Under the pieces are notes generated by a model that was given only the letters and a program-made list of their open reading frames with translations, did not search any database and had not been told where the DNA came from. Position numbers and translations under genes: made by a program. This document shows positions 402-37,016 of a DNA stretch of 37,100 bases, one piece after another (the first letter of the stretch is position 1; every line of letters starts with the position of its first letter). The stretch lies in sequence record NC_049391.1. One strand, written 5' to 3'. This DNA comes from Xuanwuvirus P884B11.

Positions 402-1448
402 TCAGGATGTGGGCTGGGTGTCCAGCAGTGCATAAGGGTTAAAGCGGATCACCTCTTCGCCAAGCCAGTCATTGATGTGCTTCATGGCCTCCATGACGGG
501 CATCAGCTCGTTAATTGCGTAAACCCGCGCGGCCTTCTCCACATCACCAAACGCACTTTTTTCACCCGGCATCGCCCCCATCAGTTGCGGCGGGACACGG
601 TGCGCAGCCAGCACATCATCACGGGATGCCGCCTTAACATTCATGAACTCATCCTTTGCGGTGATCTGCTGGAACGGCAAAATTTGCACCCCCTCTTTGC
701 CCCCGTTGGGCGCATGAATGAGCACGTTTTTAAACGCACCACCACCACGTGCACCCTGTAACGTTTCTTTCAGGGAGTCCATGCTTTCGCGGTTTACCTG
801 CGCTGCACCGATGTAGATGATGCACCCGGCGTGGGATCCGTTGTCGTAATACAGTTTTCTGAACATGTCCGCCGAATGAGACAGGCTGGCCGAGAGTAAT
901 GCGCCGAGATATTCCGGCATGCCGTAGATTTCCTGGTTAATATCCGGATTCATCAGGTGACACACTTTGCCGGGGCGAAACTGGAACGCGTCCTTGCCAT
1001 CCTGCACATACCACCATGATTCAAGATCGCTTCCGCGTCGCATGTATTTCGCCAGGGCGTGCCGTAATTTAAGCGGTTCGCCGAGCATATTGCTTCGAAG
1101 CTCAAGGAATGCGTTACCGAACACAAACCAGTCCAGCGCCAGCGCCGAGAAATCCTGCCGGGAAAGCAGCGGGTGCGGGATGTAGCAACCGAGTAATACA
1201 TTGCGCTTAAAGTAAAGCGCAGACTGATGCCAGGACGTTTGCCGGGCAGCTCTTGCCAGACCGTACCAGTCCACCGGGGTTTCATACCACCGCCCGTTAT
1301 CAGCACAGTACATATTATCCAGCAGGTCATGCCCGGTCAGGCGATAAGGCCCATCAAATGTGAATGCACTGAGCGACGATTCATTCCTGAGCGCATCAGC
1401 GAGATCAATGCGTGAACTCATGCGCACTTTTTTATTTTTTCTGCTCAT
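402..1448 (-). CDS. Q: Portal (capsid portal) protein, P2 gpQ-like
   Basis: 348-aa ORF; length, position next to terminase P and sequence resemble P2 Q as I recall it; start overlaps the P stop. Confidence 0.85.
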   Translation of the reverse strand: MSRKNKKVRMSSRIDLADALRNESSLSAFTFDGPYRLTGHDLLDNMYCADNGRWYETPVDWYGLARAARQTSWHQSALYFKRNVLLGCYIPHPLLSRQDFSALALDWFVFGNAFLELRSNMLGEPLKLRHALAKYMRRGSDLESWWYVQDGKDAFQFRPGKVCHLMNPDINQEIYGMPEYLGALLSASLSHSADMFRKLYYDNGSHAGCIIYIGAAQVNRESMDSLKETLQGARGGGAFKNVLIHAPNGGKEGVQILPFQQITAKDEFMNVKAASRDDVLAAHRVPPQLMGAMPGEKSAFGDVEKAARVYAINELMPVMEAMKHINDWLGEEVIRFNPYALLDTQPTS

Positions 1449-3199
1449 CAGAACTCCATAACCGTGAAACGCTCGTTTTCTCCTTCGCCGCCAATTGGTT
1501 CGTTAATGACAGCAAGCATGGTTGCCCACGCAAGGTCGCCGTGGCTGATCCCCCTCGCGCGGTCCGTTTCGTAAGTGATAAAGCCGCCCGGTGTTTTCAC
1601 CTTACGCACGGCGTTAAAGGCTGCGACCAGTTCGCGTTCGGCGCGATCGTATTCCCACCGCCCGGCGCGCATTATTTGCAGCATTTTCAGTACCAGCGAC
1701 CGTTTTGATGACAGCGTGAAGGTGTACGGAATAGCAGCAGGGAAAAACCGTTTCACTATCTGATAAACAGCCTCCCCGTTCCCGCCCGTCACATCAATGC
1801 CGATGTGTTCCACGTTGTAGCGACACGTGAACTCTTCAATGACTCTGGCCTGTTCTTCAAACTCCAGCCCCTGAACGCGTCGCGTCTCCACCGTTCGAAA
1901 ACGGCCACCAGGAACAGCCGGAGGGACCACCACGGACACCGCGCCGCTGTCGCCGTTGCCACTGCTGCCGTTTGCGTCATACCCAATCCATACCGGGCGA
2001 TTCCCCATCGGGCGGGGAGCAAAAGGTTTCCAGTCTTTCCAGTCGTCGTATCCGTCAACACCGCAGCCAATCAGGATATTCAGGTTAAATGCCGATTCCC
2101 CTTCGCGGACAAACTCACACATATAGAGATTGAGGAACTCGTCTTCGGTGTTTTCATCACGAATTTCGTCGATATCGGTGTGTTTCCAGCCGTGATTAAC
2201 CACATCTTCCAGCGTGACAATTTGCCGCCACGTCCGGTCAGGGCAGATAAGCCCGTTATGCAGCGTTTTCCAGTCCACAGAAAAACGCTGGCGTTTATGC
2301 GTGGCCTTTTTCTCGTTCCAGCGGTCGCCGTTCCAGTAGGCGTATGCCTCGTGCGTTTCGGTGGATGGCGTGGAGAAGTAGGTGCGCCGCAGTCCGCTGA
2401 GGGTTGCCATAGCGCCAGCCACCTTGCGCAGTTCAGCAAAGCGGCTGACCCAGAAAAATTCATCAAAATAAAAATTGCCAGTATAGGACTGTGCCGACGC
2501 AGCAGAAGTGCCGAGGAAATGCAGCTCTGCGCCGTTGGAGAGGATGATTTTATCACCCCCTTTCAGCTCCACATCAACTTCAGCCGCGGCCTTCTGAATA
2601 ATGCTTTTAAACTGGAACGCCTGACGACGCGACGCAGACAAAAAAATCTGGTTACGCTGGTAAGGTTGCGCCACATCGTCACGCAGCGCCATCAACAGTG
2701 CTTCCTGTGCAAAATACCAGGTCGCCCCAATCTGTCGGGATTTCAGGATCATCCTGTTACGTATCCCGGCTTCCCTGCAAAGGGTCAGGGCGTCAAACCA
2801 GCCCCGCTGATGCCACTCCAGCCTGCTGATGATTTTTTCCCGCAGTGCGGCAATCTGTTCCGGCGTGAAATGATTTTTAAGTTTTTTCGCCCGGGTTTTC
2901 TTTCCTGTGGCCGTCGCATCCGGCTGGTCATTATGCAGTTTTTTAAGCTGCCGGGTCAGCAGGTCTATTTCCTTGAAGTCACCACCTGTTTTATTCTGTT
3001 TTTCAGTAAGCTGGATGAGGCGCGCATCGATGGACTGCGTGACACGCTGCACGGGTGGCGTTTCATCCCACTGATCGCGTTTTTTCCACGCATAAATCGT
3101 GTTCGGGTTTATTCCCATCAGACGTGATATTTCTGCGGGCGGATAACCCTGCCAGTAAAGTTGTCGCGCACGCTGGCGCACAAAAGCGTCCTGAATCAT
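1448..3199 (-). CDS. P: Terminase large (ATPase) subunit, P2 gpP-like
   Basis: 583-aa ORF divergent from the O-N-M capsid operon, as in P2; N-terminal HTH-like segment followed by a large ATPase/nuclease body. Confidence 0.85.
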   Translation of the reverse strand: MIQDAFVRQRARQLYWQGYPPAEISRLMGINPNTIYAWKKRDQWDETPPVQRVTQSIDARLIQLTEKQNKTGGDFKEIDLLTRQLKKLHNDQPDATATGKKTRAKKLKNHFTPEQIAALREKIISRLEWHQRGWFDALTLCREAGIRNRMILKSRQIGATWYFAQEALLMALRDDVAQPYQRNQIFLSASRRQAFQFKSIIQKAAAEVDVELKGGDKIILSNGAELHFLGTSAASAQSYTGNFYFDEFFWVSRFAELRKVAGAMATLSGLRRTYFSTPSTETHEAYAYWNGDRWNEKKATHKRQRFSVDWKTLHNGLICPDRTWRQIVTLEDVVNHGWKHTDIDEIRDENTEDEFLNLYMCEFVREGESAFNLNILIGCGVDGYDDWKDWKPFAPRPMGNRPVWIGYDANGSSGNGDSGAVSVVVPPAVPGGRFRTVETRRVQGLEFEEQARVIEEFTCRYNVEHIGIDVTGGNGEAVYQIVKRFFPAAIPYTFTLSSKRSLVLKMLQIMRAGRWEYDRAERELVAAFNAVRKVKTPGGFITYETDRARGISHGDLAWATMLAVINEPIGGEGENERFTVMEF

Positions 3200-11611: not shown

Positions 11612-13762
11612 ATGAGTACCACAACACGAAAATTTAAAACCGTTATCACCGATACGGGTGCAAAAAAATTAGCGCAGGCAGCCGCGCCAGATGGTAAGCC
11701 TGTCCGCCTGACTCATATGGCCGTGGGCGACGGTGGCGGTACATTGCCCACACCTGACAGTAAGCAGACCCGTCTGGTGCATGAGGTGTGGCGACACGCT
11801 GTTAATCGCGTCATCCTGGACGCAACACATCAGAACCGCATTATTGCAGAGCTGGTTATTCCTCCAGAAACGGGCGGATTCTGGATCCGGGAAATTGGTG
11901 TATTTGATGAGCACGGCGATTTAATCGCGGTGGGCAATACTGCCGAAAGTTACAAGCCAGCCGTTGCCGAAGGGTCCGGTCGTGCACAAACATTTCGCAC
12001 CATTCTGACCGTATCCAGCACTGCCACCGTGGCGCTTACCGTGGATAACACCATGGTGATGGCCACAGTGGATTACGTGGATGACAAACTGAAAGAGCAT
12101 GAACAGTCACGACGTCACCCGGACGCCTCGCTGACCGCAAAAGGCTTTGTTCAACTCAGTAGCGCCACTAACAGCGTGTCTGAAACGCAGGCTGCAACGC
12201 CGAAAGCGGTTAAGGCCGCGTATGATCTTGCTAACGGTAAATATACTGCGCAGGATGCCAGCACGACGCGAAAAGGCCTTGTCCAGCTCAGTAGCGCCAC
12301 CAACAGCACGTCTGAAACGCAGGCTGCAACGCCGAAAGCAGTAAAGGCCGCGTATGATCTTGCTAACGCAAAATATACCGCTCAGGACGCCACGACAGCA
12401 CAAAAAGGGATTGTCCAGCTCAGTAGTGCCACCAACAGCACGTCTGAAACATTGGCCGCGACATCGAAAGCGGTTAAGGCGGTAATGGATGAAACAAATA
12501 AGAAAGCCCCATTAAACAGCCCGGCGCTGACCGGAACACCAACAACACCAACTGCGCGACAGGGAACGAATAATACCCAAATCGCAAGCACGGCTTTCGT
12601 TATGGCTGCGATTGCCGCCCTTGTAGATTCGTCACCTGATGCACTGAACACGCTGAACGAGCTGGCTGCGGCGTTGGGCAACGACCCGAATTTTGCGACC
12701 ACCATGACTAACGCGCTTGCGGGTAAGCAACCGAAAGATGCCACCCTGACGGCGCTGGCCGGGCTTGCTACTGCGGCAGACAGGTTTCCGTATTTTACGG
12801 GGAATGATGTCGCCAGCCTGGCAACTCTGACAAAAGTCGGGCGGGATATTCTTGCGAAATCGACCGTTGCCGCCGTTATCGAATACCTCGGTTTACAGGA
12901 AACGGTAAACAGGGCTGGTAACGCCGTGCAAAAAAATGGCGATACCTTGTCCGGTGGGCTTACTTTTGAAAATGACTCAATCCTTGCCTGGATTCGAAAT
13001 ACTGACTGGGCGAAGATTGGATTTAAAAATGATGCTGATGGTGACACTGATTCATACATGTGGTTTGAAACAGGCGACAACGGCAATGAATATTTCAAAT
13101 GGAGAAGCCGCCAGAGCACCACAACAAAAGACCTGATGACGCTGAAATGGGATGCACTAAATATTCTGGTAAATGCCGTCATTAATGGCAGTCTTGGAGT
13201 TGGTACGACGAATGCGTTAGGTGGTAGCTCTATTGTTCTTGGTGATAATGACACCGGATTCAAACAGAATGGTGATGGTATTCTGGATGTTTACGCTAAT
13301 AGTCAGCGAGTATTCCGCTTTCAGAATGGAGTTGCTATTGCTTTTAAAAACATTCAGGCAGGTGATAGTAAAAAGTTCTCGCTATCCAGCTCCAACACCT
13401 CCACAAAGAATGCAACGTTTAATTTATGGGGTGCTTCAACCCGTCCAGTAGTTGCAGAGTTAGGCGATGAGGCAGGATGGCATTTCTATAGCCAGCGAAA
13501 TACAGATAACTCGGTAATATTTTCTGTTAACGGTCAGATACAGCCCAGCAACTGGGGGAATTTTGATTCACGCTATGTAAAAGATGTTCGCCTGGGTACG
13601 CGAGTTGTTCAATTGATGGCGCGTGGTGGTCGTTATGAAAAAGCCGGACACGCAATTACCGGATTAAGAATCATTGGTGAAGTAGATGGCGATGATGAAG
13701 CCATCTTCAGACCAATACAAAAATACATCAATGGCACATGGTATAACGTCGCACAGGTGTAA
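11612..13762 (+). CDS. H: Tail fibre protein H (constant N-terminal part fused to currently expressed variable C-terminal tip)
   Basis: 716 aa; the crossover site lies in frame at codons about 422-430 (IEYLGLQE); C-terminus ends INGTWYNVAQV, mirrored by the inverted silent tip (INGTWYNAGSI). Confidence 0.85.
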   Translation: MSTTTRKFKTVITDTGAKKLAQAAAPDGKPVRLTHMAVGDGGGTLPTPDSKQTRLVHEVWRHAVNRVILDATHQNRIIAELVIPPETGGFWIREIGVFDEHGDLIAVGNTAESYKPAVAEGSGRAQTFRTILTVSSTATVALTVDNTMVMATVDYVDDKLKEHEQSRRHPDASLTAKGFVQLSSATNSVSETQAATPKAVKAAYDLANGKYTAQDASTTRKGLVQLSSATNSTSETQAATPKAVKAAYDLANAKYTAQDATTAQKGIVQLSSATNSTSETLAATSKAVKAVMDETNKKAPLNSPALTGTPTTPTARQGTNNTQIASTAFVMAAIAALVDSSPDALNTLNELAAALGNDPNFATTMTNALAGKQPKDATLTALAGLATAADRFPYFTGNDVASLATLTKVGRDILAKSTVAAVIEYLGLQETVNRAGNAVQKNGDTLSGGLTFENDSILAWIRNTDWAKIGFKNDADGDTDSYMWFETGDNGNEYFKWRSRQSTTTKDLMTLKWDALNILVNAVINGSLGVGTTNALGGSSIVLGDNDTGFKQNGDGILDVYANSQRVFRFQNGVAIAFKNIQAGDSKKFSLSSSNTSTKNATFNLWGASTRPVVAELGDEAGWHFYSQRNTDNSVIFSVNGQIQPSNWGNFDSRYVKDVRLGTRVVQLMARGGRYEKAGHAITGLRIIGEVDGDDEAIFRPIQKYINGTWYNVAQV
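12133..12490 (+). repeat. Three tandem ~126-bp (42-aa) repeats inside tail fibre gene H
   Basis: Near-identical units encoding G(F/L/I)VQLSSATNS(V/T)SET(Q/L)AAT(P/S)KAVKA...; visible as DNA repeats. Boundaries approximate. Confidence 0.8.
12876..12901. other. Invertase crossover site (gix/hix/cix-like), left, inside H
   Basis: TTATCGAATACC-TC-GGTTTACAGGAA; inverted repeat of the right site with complementary central dinucleotides (TC vs GA); matches the Gin/Hin-family site pattern of 12-bp half-sites around AAACC..GGTTT. Confidence 0.8.
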
Positions 13763-13765
13763 ATT

Positions 13766-14293
13766 ATGCAGCATTTAAAAAATATTAAGTCCGGAAATCC
13801 AAAAACAAAAGAACAATATCAGCTAACAAAGAATTTTGATGTTATCTGGTTATGGTCCGAAGACGGTAAAAACTGGTATGAGGAAGTAAATAACTTTCAG
13901 GACGACACCATAAAGATTGTATACGACGAAAATAATATTATTGTTGCCATAACCAAAGATGCCTCAACGCTTAATCCCGAAGGCTTTAGTGTCGTTGAGA
14001 TTCCAGATATAACAGCCAATCGTCGTGCCGATGATTCAGGGAAGTGGATGTTTAAGGACGGAACTGTGGTTAAGCGGATTTATACAGCAGACGAACAGCA
14101 ACAACAGGCCGAATCACAAAAGGTCGCGTTGCTTTCTGAAGCTGAAAGCGTTATTCAGCCACTGGAACGCGCTGTCAGGCTGAATATGGCGACGGATGAG
14201 GAACGCACACGACTGGAGTCATGGGAACGCTACAGCGTTCTGGTCAGCCGTGTGGATACAGCAAATCCCGAATGGCCACAAAAGCCTGAGTAA
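13766..14293 (+). CDS. G: Tail fibre assembly protein (chaperone), P2 gpG-like
   Basis: 175 aa directly after H; N-terminus [22 protein letters not shown] is shared with the inverted paralogue at 14322-14855. Confidence 0.85.
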
Positions 14294-14321
14294 AAATTAA
14301 GGCCCAATATCGAGCCTTCTC

Positions 14322-14855
14322 TCATTCTGGTTGTTCGGGAAACGTTACTGGCAGGCTGGAGGTGTCTGTAGATTCGACTTTCTGCGCATAGAGCATCCAC
14401 TCGGTTAATTTTTGTTTATTCTCGTCGGAAATGATGCCCAGCCGTAGCTGTGAGTCCCATAGCTGGGTTTTATCCCTGACAAGTTGCAACAGGCTTTGCT
14501 TTTCATTTTCCGCTTGTTGCCTCTGCTCTTCCTCGGTATAAGTTCGCTTTATCACTACGCCATCTTTGAACAACCATTTCCCCGAAATATCAGCCCGGCG
14601 ATTTGCTGTAATATCAGGTAATTCAACGACGCTTGCGCCTTCCGGATTAATTGCTGAAACATCCTTTTCAATACAAATAATAACGCCGTTATGGTCATAG
14701 ACCATTTTCAAAGTGTCTGGCTGGAAATTCTTTTGTTCCTCATACCAGTTTTTTCCATCATCTGAATAAAGCCATTTGATGTTAAATTGCTTTGTTAGCT
14801 GGTATTGCTCTTTTGTTTTAGGGTTGCCAGCAGTAATGTTTTTTAAGTGCATCAT
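14322..14855 (-). CDS. Alternative tail fibre assembly protein (G-prime) in the invertible segment
   Basis: 177 aa on the minus strand; N-terminal 40 aa nearly identical to G, C-terminus diverged; follows the alternative fibre tip. Confidence 0.8.
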   Translation of the reverse strand: MMHLKNITAGNPKTKEQYQLTKQFNIKWLYSDDGKNWYEEQKNFQPDTLKMVYDHNGVIICIEKDVSAINPEGASVVELPDITANRRADISGKWLFKDGVVIKRTYTEEEQRQQAENEKQSLLQLVRDKTQLWDSQLRLGIISDENKQKLTEWMLYAQKVESTDTSSLPVTFPEQPE

Positions 14856-14857
14856 CG

Positions 14858-15553
14858 TTAAATACTCCCCGCGTTATACCACGTCCCATTAATGCAATAC
14901 TGAATTGGCCTTGCCTGTGTTGTATCAATTAATTCATCACGGTTTCCGTTAACTGAACCCGTAACGACATAACCTGACCTGTCAGACCAGCCGGGACCAT
15001 TCCATGTCTGAACAGATGACAGACCGCCAAGGCGAATACCTGTAATAAACCTTGAGTTACATTCTGCCTGCGTATATGCACCAACATCTCCCGCTGAAGG
15101 TTTTCGTGTCGTGGTATAGAAATCTGACCAACCTAATTCAAACCCATAACCATCACGAGCCGACCTGTAGGAAATGCCACCATTTTTATAATTCACACGG
15201 AATTGTACGGCAGGACAGCTACCAGCATTTATATTAAAGTGAAGAATTAATGCAGATGCACCACTAATCAGGGCGTTATATGCACCACTATCCCAATTCC
15301 ATCCAACGGATGTATCACCATTAACAGTATTACCTGTTTGTCGGAGTGCAAATGCATTGACATTTTTGGCACTAATTGAAATATCGCTAGAACCATCAAA
15401 ACCAACTCCAGCAATTTTTCGTGCTGTTTTCAGCTTTGTTGCAGTAGCGGCATTGCCGGACAGTTCCCCAGAAAGGCCACCGCTGAATGTTTGTCGATTG
15501 GTCCAGGTATTCGCTGTACTGAGTAACGGTATTTTCTCCCCGCTTGTGCCGAG
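14858..15553 (-). CDS. Alternative tail fibre C-terminal segment (promoterless; becomes fused to H after inversion)
   Basis: Minus-strand frame is open from the right crossover site down to the stop at 14858, in the phase that continues H across the site; no start codon or RBS of its own at the 5-prime end. Confidence 0.75.
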   Translation of the reverse strand, partial: LGTSGEKIPLLSTANTWTNRQTFSGGLSGELSGNAATATKLKTARKIAGVGFDGSSDISISAKNVNAFALRQTGNTVNGDTSVGWNWDSGAYNALISGASALILHFNINAGSCPAVQFRVNYKNGGISYRSARDGYGFELGWSDFYTTTRKPSAGDVGAYTQAECNSRFITGIRLGGLSSVQTWNGPGWSDRSGYVVTGSVNGNRDELIDTTQARPIQYCINGTWYNAGSI

Positions 15554-15579
15554 TTCTCGTAAACCGAGGTTTTAAATAA
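15554..15579. other. Invertase crossover site (gix-like), right, adjacent to invertase gene
   Basis: TTCTCGTAAACC-GA-GGTTTTAAATAA, close to the Gin/Hin-family site consensus as I recall it; inverted relative to the site at 12876-12901. Confidence 0.8.
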
Positions 15580-15632
15580 TGGCCGTTTCTGGCCTGCATG
15601 GCATGATTTGCGCTTTTGGACGGGAGATTCAG

Positions 15633-16233
15633 TGTGCTGATTGGCTATGTAAGGGTATCAACAAATGACCAGAATACAGACCTGCAACGAAACGCTCTTG
15701 TTTGTGCAGGATGTGAACAAATATTTGAAGATAAATTAAGCGGGACAAAGACAGACCGACCGGGATTAAAACGCGCTTTAAAGCGCCTTCAAAAAGGTGA
15801 CACGCTGGTTGTCTGGAAACTGGATCGCCTCGGGCGAAGCATGAAACATCTGATTTCTCTCGTCGGGGAACTACGGGAGCGAGGGATTAATTTTCGCAGT
15901 CTGACCGACAGCATAGACACATCTTCTCCAATGGGGCGTTTTTTCTTCCACGTGATGGGTGCCCTAGCTGAAATGGAACGTGAATTAATTGTTGAACGTA
16001 CACTGGCCGGGCTGGCGGCAGCGCGCGCAAGGGGACGCACAGGCGGACGTCGACCGAAGCTGACAAAAGAACAGCATGAGCAAATAGCAAGGCTAATCAA
16101 AAACGGGCACGACAGAAAACAACTGGCAATAATTTACGGCATTGGCACATCGACGATTTATCGTTATCACCCTGTAGGCGATATACAGACTGAAGAAACA
16201 ACCGGGCAGACTCAGGAAAATGAAAACCGCTAA
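15633..16233 (+). CDS. Serine DNA invertase, Gin/Pin/Cin/Hin family
   Basis: GTG start with GGGAGA RBS (track offers TTG 15616); LIGYVRVSTNDQNTDLQRNAL catalytic N-terminus and C-terminal HTH, very close to Mu Gin / e14 Pin as I recall them. Confidence 0.9.
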
Positions 16234-23417: not shown

Positions 23418-23607
23418 CAGGCAGAATTGCCGGAGTAACAAAAAAGCGATAGATTACGCGCGGGTGCCTTTCGGCTGATGGTCGGAGGGAATACCCGAAG
23501 GCCAGATGTGGAAAGGCCCCGGAAAACATTTCTGTTTAACCGAGGCCCTAACCGTCTAACCTTAGCAAGTGATAGGTTAGCGCCTCCCTGAAAAAGGAGC
23601 AAGCGCT

Positions 23608-23748
23608 ATGTCGCAAAAATCGCTTACGGCCATCACGTTCTGCGTGACGGCAATCCTCATCATCTGGATGCTGCACGGTTCGCTGTGCGAAATACGGATG
23701 AGCTTCTGGGGAGCGGAGTTTGCGGCGTTCTTACAGTGTAAGCAGTAA
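23608..23748 (+). CDS. Hok/Gef-family type I toxin (small membrane peptide)
   Basis: 46-aa ORF missed by the 60-aa track; hydrophobic TM then SLCEIR...AAF core shared with Hok/Gef; GGAG RBS; upstream hairpin (CTAACCT/AGGTTAG) and strong 3-prime hairpin at 23757-23779. Confidence 0.6.
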   Translation: MSQKSLTAITFCVTAILIIWMLHGSLCEIRMSFWGAEFAAFLQCKQ

Positions 23749-23821
23749 GGAAACCGCGACGGGGGAGCAATCCCCCGTCAATCGGTTGCCAGGGTAAGGT
23801 CGATAAGGCACCCTATCTCAC

Positions 23822-23931
23822 CAATGCCGTTCAGTTAGTTAAGGAATTGAGGTTCGATAGCCCGAACCTCGCGCAGAGGCAATATGACCGAAAGCCTGAT
23901 TCCTTAATGCCCAAGATGAGTCTCTATTCAT
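23822..23931. repeat. Left ~110-bp terminal inverted repeat of the 1.49-kb element
   Basis: Near-identical to the reverse complement of 25201-25307 (a few substitutions, one 3-bp indel); contains nested sub-palindromes TTAAGGAAT...ATTCCTTAA and GAGGTTCG...CGAACCTC. Confidence 0.8.
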
Positions 23932-24157
23932 AAAAGCGCTTAACTACTCGACATTGGCGGTGTATCCCCCGCATTGTCTGAATGCCGCCTCTTACCTTTC
24001 GCGGTCAACTGACGACTTCTAGTTCTAGAACGCCTTGATTTTTTGTACTTGTACATTGAAAAATAACCATAAATTGTTAGCCTGTGCAGTAGACTCAGTG
24101 GTGGTAACTGGTCAGCATGAAGTGTAAAGTGAATAACGAAGCTCTAAAATTATAGGG

Positions 24158-24406
24158 ATGGTCATGAATAATAAGCTAAAGGTAATTGAGTTAAATAGTC
24201 TTGATCTGTTTCGTAAAGAATTACTAACTACTATAAAGCCAGAGAAAGTAGAGAAATTACTTAGATGGTATCTTCAATCATATGGCGGTGTTAATTTCAA
24301 GTTCGGTTATGACAGACCAATTTTTAGAGCGCGAAAGTGCCCAAATGAATGCGGATATAATAACATCAGTGAGATATATCCCCCTCACCAGAAAAATGTA
24401 AAATAG
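24158..24406 (+). CDS. Hypothetical protein; probable N-terminal part of a frameshift-split RES-domain protein
   Basis: 82-aa ORF ending 6 nt before the next ORF; contains PIFRARK, positioned like the conserved N-terminal Arg of RES domains. Confidence 0.5.
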   Translation: MVMNNKLKVIELNSLDLFRKELLTTIKPEKVEKLLRWYLQSYGGVNFKFGYDRPIFRARKCPNECGYNNISEIYPPHQKNVK

Positions 24407-24411
24407 GCCGA

Positions 24412-24990
24412 ATGAATGATGATGGACAAGCTATCTTCTATGGCGCTTATAGTATCGGAACAGCTTTAGCCGAAATTAATGCAAAAGAAGGGGATTATGT
24501 TCACATAGCTCACTTTAAGATGCCGGAAAATTCAGAGTCTGGAATGCGATGTTTTGCTATCGGTGAGGTCTTTAATGTGTATCACGGTGTAAATACAATT
24601 TCAATTGAAGTGTTTAATGAAATTCGCGACATCATTAGCAGAATTGGTAAGGACGACATCCGAGCTTTGCTATCATATTTGTATATGGATGCCCTTTCTG
24701 CTGAGTTGCTTAATAGTATCAATGCCCATGAGGTAAATTATATTTACTCAAGAATTTTTTGCCGTCTTCTTCTTGATAAATACCCTGATGTTGATGGTCT
24801 TATTTATCCTAGCGCTAAAATAAAAGGGGCCTCAAATATCGCTTTGCGCACAGAAACAGTTAAATTGAGAATGCATTTAGTTGCTAATCTTGTGTTTAAA
24901 GTAAATAAAATTTATCCATATGGAATAGTAGATTTCAGTATAGTAAAACAAGCCAAAGGACATACATCAGATGGGCGCATCGTTTGGTGA
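24412..24990 (+). CDS. RES-domain protein (putative NAD-targeting toxin family), C-terminal part
   Basis: 192-aa ORF; the frame is open upstream to give GR-MNDDGQAIFYGAYSIGTALAE (GRxN...Y...E pattern) and later DGLIYPSAKIKGASNIAL (PS motif), the hallmark RES residues as I recall the family. Confidence 0.55.
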   Translation: MNDDGQAIFYGAYSIGTALAEINAKEGDYVHIAHFKMPENSESGMRCFAIGEVFNVYHGVNTISIEVFNEIRDIISRIGKDDIRALLSYLYMDALSAELLNSINAHEVNYIYSRIFCRLLLDKYPDVDGLIYPSAKIKGASNIALRTETVKLRMHLVANLVFKVNKIYPYGIVDFSIVKQAKGHTSDGRIVW

Positions 24991-25200
24991 GCCAAACTTT
25001 TAGTTAGCTGATTGAAAAACCGATGCGTCAGTTTGCACTGCATGTGGTGTATGGGAAGCGCGGGCTTGTAGTGCAGGTCATTTCAGAAGAAGCTAACGAG
25101 AAAGCTTAGACATACTGTGACTACTAAACAAGCAGAAAGCCCGTGTTTATGGGGGCAATCCACACAACAGGCGATGTCGATTAGTTAATACACTTGTATG

Positions 25201-25307
25201 AATAGAGACTCATTTTTGTGCATTAAGGAATCAGGCTTTCAGTCATCTTGCCTCTGCGCGAGGTTCGGGCTATCGAACCTCAATTCCTTAACTGAACTAC
25301 ATTGCCC
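25201..25307. repeat. Right ~110-bp terminal inverted repeat of the 1.49-kb element
   Basis: Reverse complement of the left repeat at 23822-23931. Confidence 0.8.
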
Positions 25308-25502
25308 TATCTCACAGCTCTAAATGCAAAAATCCCATGAAACTGTGGGTATTTCATCACACACTGACACTGCTCTACCTTTCTATATGTATCACTCTAA
25401 ACCAGTTAATCAATTGGCACTTATCAACAACAAAAAATCTGATAAAATCAAAATGTTTTGTAACAAATTTCAGCTTGTAGTGTTCCAAAGGAGACGGATT
25501 AC

Positions 25503-25835
25503 ATGGCATTAATCAAATGTCCTGAATGCCAGAAAGAGGTCAGCGATTCAGCATTATGTTGCCCTGCTTGTGGTAAACAACTGAAAAAACTTAAGCGTTC
25601 ATTTTTTGGAAAACTCATTAAATGGGCTTTTATATTTTTTAATATTTTTATGATCTATACACTTTTAGTTGGACTAGGAGGCGCTGATGAAATAATAAAC
25701 AATACCACATCCGATGCCGAAAAAGCTGGGGCAGTTATTGGTACGGGCTTAGGTTTAATTGTCATTGGAGGCTTATGGGTTATTGGCGATATCATTATCG
25801 GAATTTTAGTATTTCTTACTAAACCAAAGGGATAA
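25503..25835 (+). CDS. Small zinc-ribbon inner-membrane protein (hypothetical)
   Basis: 110 aa; CPEC...CCPACG zinc ribbon, then two hydrophobic helices; AAGGAG RBS; AT-rich codon usage unlike the phage core. Confidence 0.6.
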   Translation: MALIKCPECQKEVSDSALCCPACGKQLKKLKRSFFGKLIKWAFIFFNIFMIYTLLVGLGGADEIINNTTSDAEKAGAVIGTGLGLIVIGGLWVIGDIIIGILVFLTKPKG

Positions 25836-25839
25836 TAAA

Positions 25840-26733
25840 ATGAAAAATATGATTTTTACTATAGGTGCATTATTTATATCAATTAGTGTACTGCCTGTTC
25901 ACGCAGCAACTGAACATAAGAATTTCAATGCAGTGCTCCAGTGCCGAGCGATAGAAAACAATAAAGACAGACTTTCTTGTTATGATAAGTCAATACAACC
26001 GACTCGAACGAAAGTTGCTGAAAAATTTGAAAGCAGGGATCAATGCCCTGATGAGAAAGATGATGACAAACGTTTATCTTGTTATGATCGTTTTTTTTCT
26101 CCAACATTTACTCCATCTGTAAACTCAAAATCTAAAACGGAAAAGCTAGTAACAACAGAGGCTCAGCAACCAAATCTTTCTGAAATATCTAAATGCCGAG
26201 CAGAAAATGATAAAGAAACCAGACTAAACTGCTACGATAAACTATTCCCACAGGATGAAGCTGTTCAATCTGAATCACAATTAGAGAAAGCCACAGATGC
26301 AGGAAAATGGCACACGTCCATTACTACATCGCCAATTGATGATTCGAAAAATGTAATTTTATCGTTAGAAAGTGATGATTATATCAGAACTCCATTTGGA
26401 GAAGCTGTTACTCCCACTCTGTTTATAGCTTGCCGAGAAAAGAAAACCGAAGTATTTCTTAGTTGGGATGTATATTTAGGCCTTGAACAAACCAGCATGC
26501 TGTATCGTCTTGATAAACAGAAAGCAGTTGAAAGAAACTGGCTAATATCTACAGATACAAAGGCTGTTTTTTATAAAGGTAATGATATTGATTTCATAAG
26601 AAAACTTGCCAACTCACATAAAATGTACACAAAAATAACCCCCTATAATGAAAGCCCTGTAAGTGCAACTTTCAATTTAAGCGGCCTGTCAAATGCACTA
26701 AAACCGCTTCAAGATGCTTGTAACTGGAAATAG
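25840..26733 (+). CDS. Secreted (periplasmic) protein with three tandem Cys-pair repeats (hypothetical)
   Basis: 297 aa; signal peptide ending VHA-A; three copies of C-x11-C-YD(K/R) (QCRAIENNKDRLSCYDK, QCPDEKDDDKRLSCYDR, KCRAENDKETRLNCYDK); starts 5 nt after the previous ORF; AT-rich. Confidence 0.6.
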   Translation: MKNMIFTIGALFISISVLPVHAATEHKNFNAVLQCRAIENNKDRLSCYDKSIQPTRTKVAEKFESRDQCPDEKDDDKRLSCYDRFFSPTFTPSVNSKSKTEKLVTTEAQQPNLSEISKCRAENDKETRLNCYDKLFPQDEAVQSESQLEKATDAGKWHTSITTSPIDDSKNVILSLESDDYIRTPFGEAVTPTLFIACREKKTEVFLSWDVYLGLEQTSMLYRLDKQKAVERNWLISTDTKAVFYKGNDIDFIRKLANSHKMYTKITPYNESPVSATFNLSGLSNALKPLQDACNWK

Positions 26734-26754
26734 TATATACCTCCCCAATATCAG

Positions 26755-26792
26755 ATGACAAAACGCCCGTGAAAACGGGCGTTTTGTCATCT
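26755..26792. terminator. Intrinsic terminator-like hairpin after the accessory cassette
   Basis: Perfect 16-bp inverted repeat GATGACAAAACGCCCG / CGGGCGTTTTGTCATC with a 6-nt loop, T-run within the 3-prime arm. Confidence 0.6.
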
Positions 26793-27071
26793 GTAACTCG
26801 AAAATGTGGTCATTGCGTGGACATACGATGATATAAATCCTTTTATATCAAAAGATTAAACCACTATTATTTTCCTCAACAAGGATTTTTAACCCTTTTT
26901 CAGTCTCTGACAATCTAAGGCTCCTTTATCAACAAACGCCCATTTGCAAACTGCTGTTTAATCTGAAAAAACATTAATAATCACACAGATAACAACATAA
27001 CCATTTAGACGGGCAATACTGAAAAATTGTTATTCAGTATCGCCCTTTAAGCCGTTTCAGGCTATATAAAA

Positions 27072-28076
27072 TTAATCCCCCGTGGACACTGCGTGGACAC
27101 TTACGCCACCTTTCAGCGGATTAAGGGCCACCGCATCCTGCAGGTAATCCGGTGCAAAATGCGCATATGCCATTGTTTGCTGAATGGTTGCGTGACCAAG
27201 AATCTTCTGAAGCGCAATAATGTTTCCTCCGTTCATCACAAAATGGCTGGCGAACGTATGCCGCAGCACATGTGCAGCCTGGCCTTTTGGTAAATCGGGC
27301 TTAACTCTTTTCAGTGCCAGGCAGAATTCCCGGTACTTCACCTCAAACAAGCCGCCTGTTTCTCTGGTTTTGATCGCCTCACAAACTGCCTGCGAAATTG
27401 GCACTGTTCTCTTCCGGCCATTTTTGGTTTCAAGAAACGTTACACGGTTATGAACTATCTGTTCACCACGAAGCTTACAAGCTTCACTCCAGCGCGCCCC
27501 TGTGCTTAAACACAAAAGCGCAACACGCCAGTAGTCGCCCTCCAGTGTATCGAGCAATAGCGCCACTTCCTTCTGTGACAGGAACGCCATTTCTCGTGGA
27601 GATACATAAAGAATAGAAATTCCCCTTACTGGATGTTCTGCATCCCAAAGACCTATTTTTTTCAGCACGGTAAACATTCCGGATAACCGATTCATGTACC
27701 TGTTAGCAGATGACGGTTTCAATCCTTCAGCTATCTTTTGAGAACGCCACGCGATAATTTTCAGCTTATCAAGATCCACAGCCTGCATATCAGCGCCAAG
27801 CTCATTGATTATGTTGCGCAGTTGTTTTCGGTCTTCTTCCGCCTTACGCCTGTGCTGGCCGTGATACATCCACCACAACTCAAGCAAATCATTTAGCGTT
27901 CGACGATCACGGTAGCCCTGTATATATTCCCGCTTTTCAGCGTTCGCCATGATGTAGCGTTCAGTGGCCACCGCTACCGATTTTTTGTCAAATACCTTAC
28001 GCACGCGCTTTCCCTTGCGTCCGTTCGGCCTGATGTCCAGCAAATAACGACCATCTTCGAGCTTCTTAATCGACAT
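27072..28076 (-). CDS. int: Tyrosine integrase, P2 Int family
   Basis: Start at MSIKKLEDGRY (P2 Int begins MAIKKLDDGRY); C-terminal ARWSEA...HVLRHTFASH...LGHATIQQTMAYAH catalytic motifs (R, H-x-x-R, Y). Confidence 0.9.
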   Translation of the reverse strand: MSIKKLEDGRYLLDIRPNGRKGKRVRKVFDKKSVAVATERYIMANAEKREYIQGYRDRRTLNDLLELWWMYHGQHRRKAEEDRKQLRNIINELGADMQAVDLDKLKIIAWRSQKIAEGLKPSSANRYMNRLSGMFTVLKKIGLWDAEHPVRGISILYVSPREMAFLSQKEVALLLDTLEGDYWRVALLCLSTGARWSEACKLRGEQIVHNRVTFLETKNGRKRTVPISQAVCEAIKTRETGGLFEVKYREFCLALKRVKPDLPKGQAAHVLRHTFASHFVMNGGNIIALQKILGHATIQQTMAYAHFAPDYLQDAVALNPLKGGVSVHAVSTGD

Positions 28077-28172
28077 TACGAAGCCCTCCAATGAACCGCT
28101 CTACAATTTCTCCAGCCTCTTTCCAGCAATAATCAGACCAGACAAAAAGCAGGTCTAACCAGTTTTCTGGCC

Positions 28173-35086: not shown

Positions 35087-36046
35087 ATGAAAATTTGTAT
35101 CGACGACGGCTCCACCAACATCAAGCTGGCATGGACTGAGAACGGCGAACGCCGCAACGCCATCAGCCCGAACAGCTTCAAGTCGGAATGGTCTGCGCCG
35201 TTCGGTGGCACGCAGCCCGCGAACTACATGCTTGATGGCGTGCGCTATGGTTTTGATCCGGTCAGCGATCGCTTTGTCCAGACGACCGACACGCAATACC
35301 AGTACAGCGATGTGAATATAATTGCCATTCATCACGCGCTGGTCAAATCAGGCATCACACCACAGGAAGTGGATGTGGTTGTCACCCTGCCACTAAGCGA
35401 GTATTTCGATACAAACGCACAGCCGGACATGGCCAACATCAACCGCAAAAAAGCGAACGTCATGCGCCCGGTGGAGTACCAGAACGGCGAAGCATTCACT
35501 ATCCGTAACGTACGGGTTATGCCTGAATCCATTCCGGCTGGCTTTAAGGCACTGGCTGACATGAGTCCGTTTGAATCCCTGCTGATTGTGGATTTGGGCG
35601 GAACCACGCTGGATGTGGCAAAGGTTCAGGGGCAACTGGCAGGTATCAGCCAGGTGTTTTGCGATCCACACGTGGGCGTTTCTCTGATGGCCGATGCCGT
35701 ACTGTCGGTGATGGCCACTAACGGTATGCGCACCAGTCACCACATCGCCAATACCATTATCGAACATCGCCATGATGAAGCCTGGCTGCGCCAGCACATC
35801 CACAATGACGCGCATTACGCCAGCCTGATGGCGGTAATTCGTGAAAAGGAAGAAACACTGAAACAACGCGTGATCCGCGCGCTGGCGGGTTTTTCGGGTT
35901 ACGGGCGGGTGATGGTTGTCGGTGGAGGGGCGGAGATTGTGGCACCCGCTATCCGCGAAGCCTGCGGAGTTAATGCGACTTTCATCGCGGACGGGGTGCC
36001 ACAGTTTGCTCTGGTTAATGGGCTGTACGCAATGGACAAGGAGTAA
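35087..36046 (+). CDS. parM: Actin-like segregation ATPase ParM (StbA) family
   Basis: 319 aa; N-terminus DDGSTNIKLAW, ISPNSFK, YSDVNIIAIHHAL, VMPESIPAG, LIVDLGGTTLD, VVGGGAE track plasmid R1 ParM almost motif for motif as I recall it. Confidence 0.85.
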   Translation: MKICIDDGSTNIKLAWTENGERRNAISPNSFKSEWSAPFGGTQPANYMLDGVRYGFDPVSDRFVQTTDTQYQYSDVNIIAIHHALVKSGITPQEVDVVVTLPLSEYFDTNAQPDMANINRKKANVMRPVEYQNGEAFTIRNVRVMPESIPAGFKALADMSPFESLLIVDLGGTTLDVAKVQGQLAGISQVFCDPHVGVSLMADAVLSVMATNGMRTSHHIANTIIEHRHDEAWLRQHIHNDAHYASLMAVIREKEETLKQRVIRALAGFSGYGRVMVVGGGAEIVAPAIREACGVNATFIADGVPQFALVNGLYAMDKE

Positions 36047-36050
36047 ACCA

Positions 36051-36362
36051 ATGACGACTCCAACCAGACGGATAAGTTTCTATCTGAAGCCCACCGCCGT
36101 CAAGAACGAAGGAGAAGCATGCGCCTGGCTGGACAGCCTTACACCAGAAGCCCGCAAAAGCGGCCAACGCGTGGCTTTTCTGGCCGGGCTGGCACTTCTG
36201 AAAATGAATCCGGCAGAGGCTTATCGACTGGCTGCATGGGCTGGTGATGAAGCGTTATCAGTGACACAAACCAGGACAGAACGCCCCGCATCACAGCCAG
36301 TATCAACCGCACAGATAACCAGTCAGATGGCCGGAAATATCCGGGCGTTATTTCCTGAATAA
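36051..36362 (+). CDS. parR: ParR (StbB) centromere-binding adaptor
   Basis: About 103 aa from MTTPTRR; RRISFYLKP...LDSL...AFLAGLALLKMNP mirrors R1 ParR (RTIAFKLNP...LDSI...ALTAGLALYRQDP); start 5 nt after the parM stop with AAGGAG RBS. Confidence 0.75.
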   Translation: MTTPTRRISFYLKPTAVKNEGEACAWLDSLTPEARKSGQRVAFLAGLALLKMNPAEAYRLAAWAGDEALSVTQTRTERPASQPVSTAQITSQMAGNIRALFPE

Positions 36363-36425
36363 CACAACATCAGGGCGAGTTCGCCCTGCTCTCCACCTCA
36401 GAACATAAACAAGGAGAACGACTTA

Positions 36426-37016
36426 ATGAGCGAAATCAACTATCAGGCATTACGTGAACGTTATTCACCTGTGCCAGTACCGAAATGCCCTATTTGCGGC
36501 GAGGAAATGTCAATTCAGCGAATATCTGGAGCACAGGTTGTTTATGCCTGCTCCGGTTATGGTGATGATGGAGATTTCAAAATTGGCCGAACTCTTGCTG
36601 ACGAACATTATGAAAAATCACGCGTAACAGTGTTGGATGTCGGGGATCCTGAAGTATTGGCGCTACTTGATTGGCTGGAAACCAAAGACAACCGAATCGC
36701 TGAACTGGAAAAAATCGCCACTGACTATGCACTTAAATTCCAGAAAGCACAGGACGCATTAAAGCATGCCGCTTTGCTGCATAGCAGGACGGCGCAACAA
36801 ACAAATAATTTTGCAGTATCGCTTCCGGACATAAGCGAATATTTCATTAATGACGTATTTCAGCCCTTGCGATACGAGCGGGATGTTGAAAGAGCCATCA
36901 TAAAGGCTGGCGGAAAAGCATTGTGGCAGGAGAAACACGAGGACAGAACGCATCAGTCATGCGATGTAAATTGTGGATGGTTTAGCCCACTGACGACAGA
37001 TAAAAATAACACCTGA
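36426..37016 (+). CDS. Hypothetical protein with N-terminal zinc-ribbon-like CxxC motif
   Basis: 196-aa ORF with AAGGAG RBS; CPICGEE...YACSG motif, helical middle; no family recognised. Confidence 0.45.
   Translation: MSEINYQALRERYSPVPVPKCPICGEEMSIQRISGAQVVYACSGYGDDGDFKIGRTLADEHYEKSRVTVLDVGDPEVLALLDWLETKDNRIAELEKIATDYALKFQKAQDALKHAALLHSRTAQQTNNFAVSLPDISEYFINDVFQPLRYERDVERAIIKAGGKALWQEKHEDRTHQSCDVNCGWFSPLTTDKNNT

Follow-up and report, generated by a model that had tools for sequence, protein, structure and literature searches.

A RES-domain gene read in two frames

The window analysed here is the whole 37,100-nt genome of Xuanwuvirus P884B11 (NC_049391.1), a complete P2-like (Peduoviridae) phage of E. 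coli presented in cos-to-cos order. Its main landmarks are:

402-3199, portal and terminase genes
up to about 23100, tail genes
27072-28091, integrase

The locus of interest lies between ogr/hok and the attachment site, in an accessory region of low GC content. An earlier note on this DNA had described two open reading frames of 82 and 192 aa in different frames, and both are present on the + strand, together with the following features:

24164..24406, + strand, ORF1, the N-terminal fragment of a RES gene, 80 aa from its likely start and carrying the invariant R55/R57
24412..24990, + strand, ORF2, the C-terminal fragment of the RES gene, 192 aa, in a frame open from 24373
24385..24387, + strand, the lesion, one C lost from a CC dinucleotide (TCA in the window, TCCA in intact copies)
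24392..24396, + strand, the A5 run named in the earlier note, which is the same in intact copies (...TCCACCAGAAAAATG) and is not the lesion
24982..24997, + strand, a terminator-like hairpin and T-run overlapping the RES stop codon, seen in a consensus scan only

Read from the ATG at 24158, ORF1 spans 24158-24406 and encodes 82 aa. The ATG at 24164 is the likelier start, with AGGGA 9 nt upstream and the RefSeq start of the intact coding sequence at the equivalent position. A sigma-70 consensus scan upstream of the gene returned no convincing promoter. The overlap of about 33 nt claimed for the two ORFs exists between the open frames, where it is 34 nt with ORF2 in the -1 frame, and not between the ATG-to-stop ORFs, which have no mutual overlap; the first residue of ORF2 is M84, one past the invariant R83 of a GRMN motif.

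ORF1 and ORF2 derive from a single RES-domain gene of 275 aa, of which each is one half. When the frame is restored, the protein (...EIYPPPPEKCKIGRMNDD..., 275 aa from 24164) differs by one residue from the database cluster P0001 and matches Pfam RES (PF08808) over residues 75-230 with 46.5 bits (E 5.4e-12), the gathering score of this family being 23.2. ORF2 alone still scores 39 bits and ORF1 alone has no PF08808 match. The RES assignment made in the earlier note was thus sound, since the same profile search on its own 277-aa fused translation gives 45.3 bits (E 1.2e-11).

A single lost base and its distribution

The earlier note had fused the two frames by inserting an A into the A5 run. 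This does yield one frame of 277 aa, but the A5 run is unchanged in intact copies, and the junction so produced (PPHQKKCK) is not the true one (PPPPEKCK): the C was lost 6-10 nt upstream of the A5 run. The position comes from alignment with the prophage of E. coli O145 FWSEC0002, which is inserted beside flk and is 99.8-99.97% identical to P884B11. The missing C falls at 24386, after T24385, the window reading ATCCCCCT-CACCAGAAAAATG against ATCCCCCTCCACCAGAAAAATG in the intact copy. The intact allele has ...CCCCCTCCACC... in DNA and ...YPPPPEKCKIGRMN... in protein, and IMG/VR contigs also show an intact TCC at this site. A gap placed by MAFFT had pointed to a C6-to-C5 homopolymer change, restoring PPSPEK; this was ruled out by the BLAST alignment, in which the C lost is the one after the T (PPPPEK). 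The homologue clusters, the family alignment and the NCBIfam and PADLOC runs described below used the PPSPEK variant of the restored protein; the Pfam result is essentially the same for this variant and for the corrected PPPPEK protein.

Intact copies are common in the host. The RES locus is found in 66 of 5426 complete E. coli genomes, at 95-99.9% identity, and its product is annotated as 'RES family NAD+ phosphorylase' in all 60 of the 66 records that were listed. A 101-nt query over the lesion matches 102 nt in 60/60 of these listed records, its best identity among all 66 copies is 99.0%, and by this measure none of the 66 carries the deletion. All six copies sampled in full (6/6) hold an intact coding sequence of 828 nt.

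The deleted allele itself was found by looking up contigs with the exact 192-aa and 82-aa products. It occurs in two NCBI assemblies, GCA_949767985.1 (on a 4.96-Mb contig, in a prophage at flk) and GCA_044199685.1, and in the Logan assemblies ERR13361374 (the same contig in seven samples) and SRR17241674. In at least four assemblies (contigs L028, L029, L030 and L032) the whole 1483-bp element that holds the gene, described below, is 100% identical to that of P884B11, deletion included; a fifth contig with a deleted-allele product covers the 3′ part only. Since at least four assemblies, made in different projects, share this exact allele, it is a circulating pseudogene allele and not a read error, although these assemblies could all derive from one clone. 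The deleted gene shows no further decay, which indicates that the allele is young.

The earlier note had listed a sequencing error among its options, in which case the phage would in fact carry an intact gene. Losing a single base is a common type of error, and the extra C is indeed present in the complete RefSeq E. coli copies (in all 60 that were listed, of 66). However, the site is a CC dinucleotide with no long homopolymer, and neither the recurrence of the allele nor the quality of the surrounding sequence fits an error: over 37 kb the BLAST alignment of P884B11 with the FWSEC0002 prophage contains 55 substitutions and just two indels, one of 5 nt and the other, the only one of 1 nt, in the RES gene. 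We consider an error very unlikely. The 5-nt indel lies at about 94, at the cos-proximal left end, and is the sole gap besides the RES-gene deletion.

A frameshift of this kind might instead be regulatory, as the earlier note proposed in its slippage-controlled toxin, with phase variation or programmed -1 ribosomal or transcriptional slippage releasing a little full-length protein. The shift needed is indeed -1, and the C5 and A5 runs within the 34-nt overlap could permit occasional slippage. Against this, the ORF1-frame codons of the overlap (TAT CCC CCT CAC CAG AAA AAT GTA AAA TAG) lack an X XXY YYZ heptamer, the lesion falls outside any homopolymer tract, and runs of five bases are far below known transcriptional slippage tracts. 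Neither run varies in length among the E. coli and IMG/VR copies examined, the lost base is kept by all 60 E. coli copies that were listed out of 66, and the split was found in no homologue. Regulatory use of the frameshift is decidedly unlikely.

The break is a real, heritable one-base deletion that inactivates the RES gene. Most carriers of this P2-like prophage keep the gene intact, and P884B11 carries a young pseudogene allele; among the explanations offered in the earlier note, the pseudogene is the one that stands. A second loss has occurred within the same RES family: P0034, the sole short homologue, is an independent pseudogene, 88% identical (Logan SRR33471194-98; contigs L015-L018, e.g. 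L017 1-831), with a GAG-to-TAG in-frame stop just before PPPPEK and its first ~17 codons replaced by unrelated sequence.

A family of long RES proteins

Homologues of the restored protein form 45 clusters with 52-99% identity and, with the one exception of P0034, 100% query cover at ~275 aa. Their hosts include Enterobacter, Lelliottia, Leclercia, Citrobacter, Buttiauxella, Salmonella, Aeromonas, Rheinheimera and Neptunomonas. An exhaustive profile search of clusters at 50% identity gave 62 matches at E <= 1e-30, 373 at E <= 1e-10 and 2213 at E <= 1e-3, and most of the 150 best matches listed are 265-320 aa long and aligned near full length. Searches with NCBIfam and PADLOC assigned the protein to no family, and a profile search of PDB sequences gave no true match.

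Seven residues, R55, R57, R83, N85, Y93, E104 and S217, are invariant across 26 family members, and with G82 they give the layout of an N-terminal Arg, a GRxN motif (G82-R83-x-N85), Tyr, Glu and Ser. Their spacing resembles that of R27, R47, Y58, E69 and S126 in MbcT, an equivalence drawn from motif spacing only. In MbcT, R27, R47 and Y58 are essential for toxicity (PMC6436930).

The structure was modelled for P0001, which is 99% identical to the restored protein. The AF2 model (pLDDT 81, pTM 0.78) has a predicted RES / ADP-ribosyltransferase-like fold; Foldseek ranked MbcT, P. putida Res, ParT and VPA0770 first, and the best matches to the predicted fold include NatT besides MbcT and ParT. 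Two parts of the model are absent from MbcT, an N-terminal extension of two helices (residues 12-39) and a helical insert (about 134-208).

These data bear on the last of the earlier readings, that the two ORFs form a genuine two-part system, through fragment complementation or with ORF1 as an inhibitor of ORF2. Both fragments are still open reading frames, and ORF2 retains its 39-bit match to the RES profile. Nevertheless, the break falls inside the catalytic domain, between two arginines that are essential in MbcT. The conserved residue set of P884B11 is divided between the fragments: ORF1 keeps only the arginine that matches MbcT R27 by spacing, and ORF2 begins one residue past the arginine that matches R47 by spacing, so that R83 is present in neither. 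As the break separates these two arginines, neither product is predicted to be active. Furthermore, the split is limited to one young allele, a single base away from intact copies, and the other family members are single chains. Nowhere among the homologues are the two ORFs conserved as separate unrelated genes; all are single proteins of ~275 aa save P0034, with conservation unbroken across the ORF1/ORF2 junction, which excludes a genuine two-part system among them. We therefore regard a working pair of ORF1 and ORF2 as exceedingly unlikely, and the ORFs as fragments of one chain.

The gene lies in an IS4-like cassette

The RES gene is enclosed by inverted repeats and by a direct repeat, neither of which featured in the earlier note:

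23822..25304, + strand, the cassette, a non-autonomous, IS4-like insertion of 1483 bp with the RES gene as its only cargo
23822..23958, + strand, left terminal inverted repeat of ~137 nt, with the end CAATGCCGTTCAG(TTAG)TTAAGGA
25172..25304, - strand, right terminal inverted repeat of ~133 nt, with the reverse-complement end CAATGTAGTTCAGTTAAGGA
23811..23821, no strand, left copy of the target-site duplication, 11 bp, CCCTATCTCAC
25305..25315, no strand, right copy of the target-site duplication, an exact 11-bp repeat, CCCTATCTCAC

The segment 23822-25304 is an insertion relative to 500465-2, PhiR44_2 and Shae_phiSM, the nearest database phages to P884B11. In phage 500465-2 the site is uninterrupted and a single copy of the 11-mer is present (GGCACCCTATCTCAC running directly into GGCTCTAAATGC). 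Among the 5426 complete E. coli genomes the filled site occurs in 66 and the empty site in 124. The GC content of the cassette is 35-39%, against 50-55% in the phage core.

The left and right inverted repeats are identical in 120/139 aligned columns. Compared with the end of the K-12 IS4 element (TAATGCCGATCAGTTAAGGA), the terminal 20 nt agree at 18/20 positions on the left, once a 4-nt insertion is removed, and at 16/20 on the right. Members of the IS4 subgroup have ends of the form -AATR--------WTW and target duplications of 10-13 bp (PMC2266710, Table 1). Both ends of the cassette read CAATG, positions 14-16 of the left end are TTA, the duplication of 11 bp falls within this range, and the size of the cassette also fits the subgroup. 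The cassette holds no DDE/YREK transposase gene, its ORFs other than the RES fragments being of 46 aa or less, and is therefore not an autonomous insertion sequence. With inverted ends of insertion-sequence type, a passenger gene, a target duplication and no transposase it has the make-up of a mobile insertion cassette. An Rfam search of the cassette found nothing.

A mobile insertion cassette would be recognised by mobilisation in trans or by copies at several sites, and here all copies (those of the 66 E. coli genomes, three in IMG/VR and the frameshifted ones) occupy one site. The cassette repeat was found nowhere else in the E. coli genomes, where a distant blastn search returned only the same 66 loci; the inverted repeat had no match in plasmids, and a 22-mer from it gave 0 matches in GTDB species representatives. 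A parent insertion sequence was found in none of these three collections, and RES homologues elsewhere share the coding sequence alone, without cassette or repeat. With one insertion site and the repeat seen nowhere else, the mobility of the cassette is inferred from a single event. A degenerate pattern of the termini picked out only a ~240-bp miniature inverted-repeat element with an IS4-like end (TAATGCCGGTCAGTTAAGGAATTGA) in Pseudomonas sp. R5(2019) (NZ_JAAAMT010000010.1; contig L027, about 456-699), which was rejected as a relative because its resemblance to the cassette stops at the terminal ~26 nt.

Considering that the element is known from one site, with no cognate transposase and no second copy of the repeat, and that the accessory regions of phages often swap modules by recombination, the inverted repeats could be read as those of a recombination module or an invertible segment. 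Such an origin does not account for the exact 11-bp target duplication and the uninterrupted target in relatives, nor for termini that agree with IS4 at 18/20 and 16/20 positions and fit the consensus and repeat length of its subgroup. An invertible segment is further at odds with the cassette having the same orientation in every copy examined, and the only resolvase-family recombinase found in the phage lies ~8 kb away, beside tail-fibre genes and not at the cassette. Taken together, these points make a recombination module or invertible segment unlikely, and clearly so. The RES gene entered the phage as the sole cargo of a 1483-bp, transposase-less cassette resembling the IS4 subgroup; an IS4-type transposase supplied in trans would have mobilised that cassette.

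Genes around the cassette and elsewhere in the phage

Directly upstream of the cassette is a hok/sok-type type I toxin-antitoxin locus (23462-23748). Its 46-aa ORF (23608-23748) matches Pfam HOK_GEF (E 4e-7), and the Rfam sok match beside it scores 43.6 bits, under the gathering score of 59. The hok stop codon is 73 nt from the cassette insertion, and the hok segment of ~370 nt is about 82% identical in many Stx-converting phages. Downstream (25503-26733) are two low-GC accessory genes that are kept in relatives with and without the cassette, the first encoding a zinc-ribbon protein of 110 aa whose C-terminal half is hydrophobic and the second a 297-aa VasI/TagO-like protein (Pfam VasI, E 6e-26). 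The VasI domain is normally tied to type VI secretion. Between the VasI-like gene and the integrase, just after the former, an inverted repeat at 26752-26793 has perfectly matched arms of 19 bp around a loop of 4 nt (CAGATGACAAAACGCCCGT/ACGGGCGTTTTGTCATCTG) and is probably a terminator adjoining attP.

Two further regions of the genome deserve mention. Between the replication gene and the right end (35087-37016) lie genes for a ParM actin-like segregation protein (Pfam StbA_N, E 4e-82), for a partition/stability protein annotated as such in a related prophage, and for an Ead/Ea22-like protein. Segregation modules of plasmid type are unusual for an integrating P2-like phage. A serine recombinase (15616-16233; Pfam Resolvase and HTH_7, E 1.5e-50) adjoins two tail-fibre-assembly ORFs in opposite orientation (13766-14293 on the + strand and 14322-14855 on the - strand), and the whole of 13766-16233 looks like an invertible host-range segment of the Gin/Cin type. 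The tail-fibre gene holds an internal repeat, 85% identical, around 12136-12480.

A RES protein without an adjacent antitoxin

The earlier note had remarked on the absence of an adjacent Xre-type antitoxin, and this was confirmed. No Xre-HTH or COG5642 (MbcA/ParS-type) gene of the kind that completes a RES-Xre module adjoins the RES gene: within the cassette there is no ORF above 46 aa other than the RES fragments, and the neighbours, hok, the zinc-ribbon membrane protein and the VasI/TagO-like protein, are also found in phages that have no insertion. A partner encoded elsewhere in the phage, which the note had suggested looking for, did not emerge either, no Xre/MbcA/ParS-type product being present in the annotated FWSEC0002 prophage. 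In eight other contexts of RES homologues there is no conserved partner gene; the neighbouring genes vary from one context to the next and show no homology among themselves. In the contexts examined, the intact 'long RES' proteins are a solo, antitoxin-less family. In the literature searched, solo RES proteins were described neither from P2-like phages nor as defence systems.

By analogy with MbcT and NatT, the intact protein would consume NAD+, by phosphorolysis or hydrolysis. It might then act as a stand-alone toxin or abortive-infection effector carried by the lysogen, and an NAD+-depleting role in exclusion or abortive infection is plausible. Such a protein could be silenced by means other than an Xre partner, for example by its own N-terminal helical hairpin and the helical insert of ~75 residues, or by low expression, and the deletion may then be a loss-of-function variant by which a costly gene is shed. 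Since at least 66 lysogens tolerate the intact, antitoxin-less gene, the RES protein may not be toxic at all.

Discussion

The combined reading that we favour has three parts: one RES gene has been broken by a real, inherited deletion of a C; the gene is the cargo of an IS4-like cassette; and the intact protein would consume NAD+, as judged from its RES relatives. We hold this combination to be highly probable. Of the earlier note, the frameshifted RES gene with no Xre partner survives, whilst the position given for the lesion and the options of a sequencing error, slippage control and a two-part system do not. The split in P884B11 is a commonplace pseudogene allele, and reading it as a two-part toxin or as one controlled by slippage would be a mistake.

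Two things are moderately new: a family of 'long RES' proteins that has no antitoxin, and the way in which one of its genes reached a P2-like phage, as cargo of an IS4-like cassette. To our knowledge, every characterised RES toxin has been defined by its Xre antitoxin. With a family that lacks one, it may be asked what restrains a potentially lethal NAD+ phosphorylase and whether the protein is an anti-phage effector. The locus is also a clear case of a temperate phage acquiring a toxin-type gene through an IS4-like cassette that has no transposase, and empty and filled sites coexist in natural populations. Prophages with the intact gene, the frameshifted gene and the empty site make up a ready natural set for testing the effect of the RES gene. 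A broader scheme can be put forward tentatively: the long RES proteins of ~275 aa might be self-restrained, antitoxin-free, NAD+-depleting effectors of prophage abortive infection or exclusion, spread by cassettes of the IS4 subgroup, their recurrent inactivation (the deletion allele and the independent copy with a nonsense codon and disrupted 5′ end) reflecting a fitness cost. We think this scheme possible, though on balance doubtful.

Compared with known RES toxins, the protein is divergent. It shares 8-16% identity with MbcT (M. tuberculosis), NatT (P. aeruginosa), Res (P. putida), ParT (Sphingobium) and VPA0770 (Vibrio), and is about 275 aa long against 145-250 aa for the toxins of RES-Xre modules, from which it differs by the extra two-helix N-terminus and by a helical insert of ~75 residues that separates the Glu motif from the Ser motif. 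The toxins of those modules are paired with an antitoxin, whereas the P884B11 gene has no adjacent Xre, MbcA or ParS and is itself broken.

The closest parallels to the cassette are MIC231 and the other IS231-subgroup cassettes of the Bacillus cereus group, which likewise combine IS4-family ends and a passenger gene with the lack of a transposase and a duplication of ~10-12 bp. The P884B11 cassette differs from MIC231 in having ends of the IS4 subgroup, like those of E. coli IS4, and not of IS231, in inverted repeats of ~135 bp as opposed to ~20 bp, and in being known from one insertion with no parent element found. A 2008 survey of the IS4 family stated that modular elements of this kind had been seen only in IS231 (PMC2266710). 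Set against E. coli K-12 IS4 (insG), the cassette is alike in its terminal 20 bp (16-18/20 identical) and comparable in target duplication (11 bp versus 12 bp at the K-12 copy) and in length (1483 bp versus 1426 bp); unlike IS4 it has no transposase gene, and its interior and the rest of its long repeats are unrelated to that element.

Finally, the locus resembles the moron and defence genes of P2-like phages (old, tin, fun/Z and the hotspot systems) in being a low-GC accessory gene of a P2-like prophage, and the RES gene is oriented with its accessory neighbours, hok and the genes for the zinc-ribbon and VasI/TagO-like proteins. The classic accessory sites of P2 are beside the tail genes (fun/Z) and between the replication gene and cos (tin, old). 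The RES gene instead occupies the ogr-to-att region, has no PADLOC match and, unlike the P2 morons, arrived by transposition and not by module exchange.
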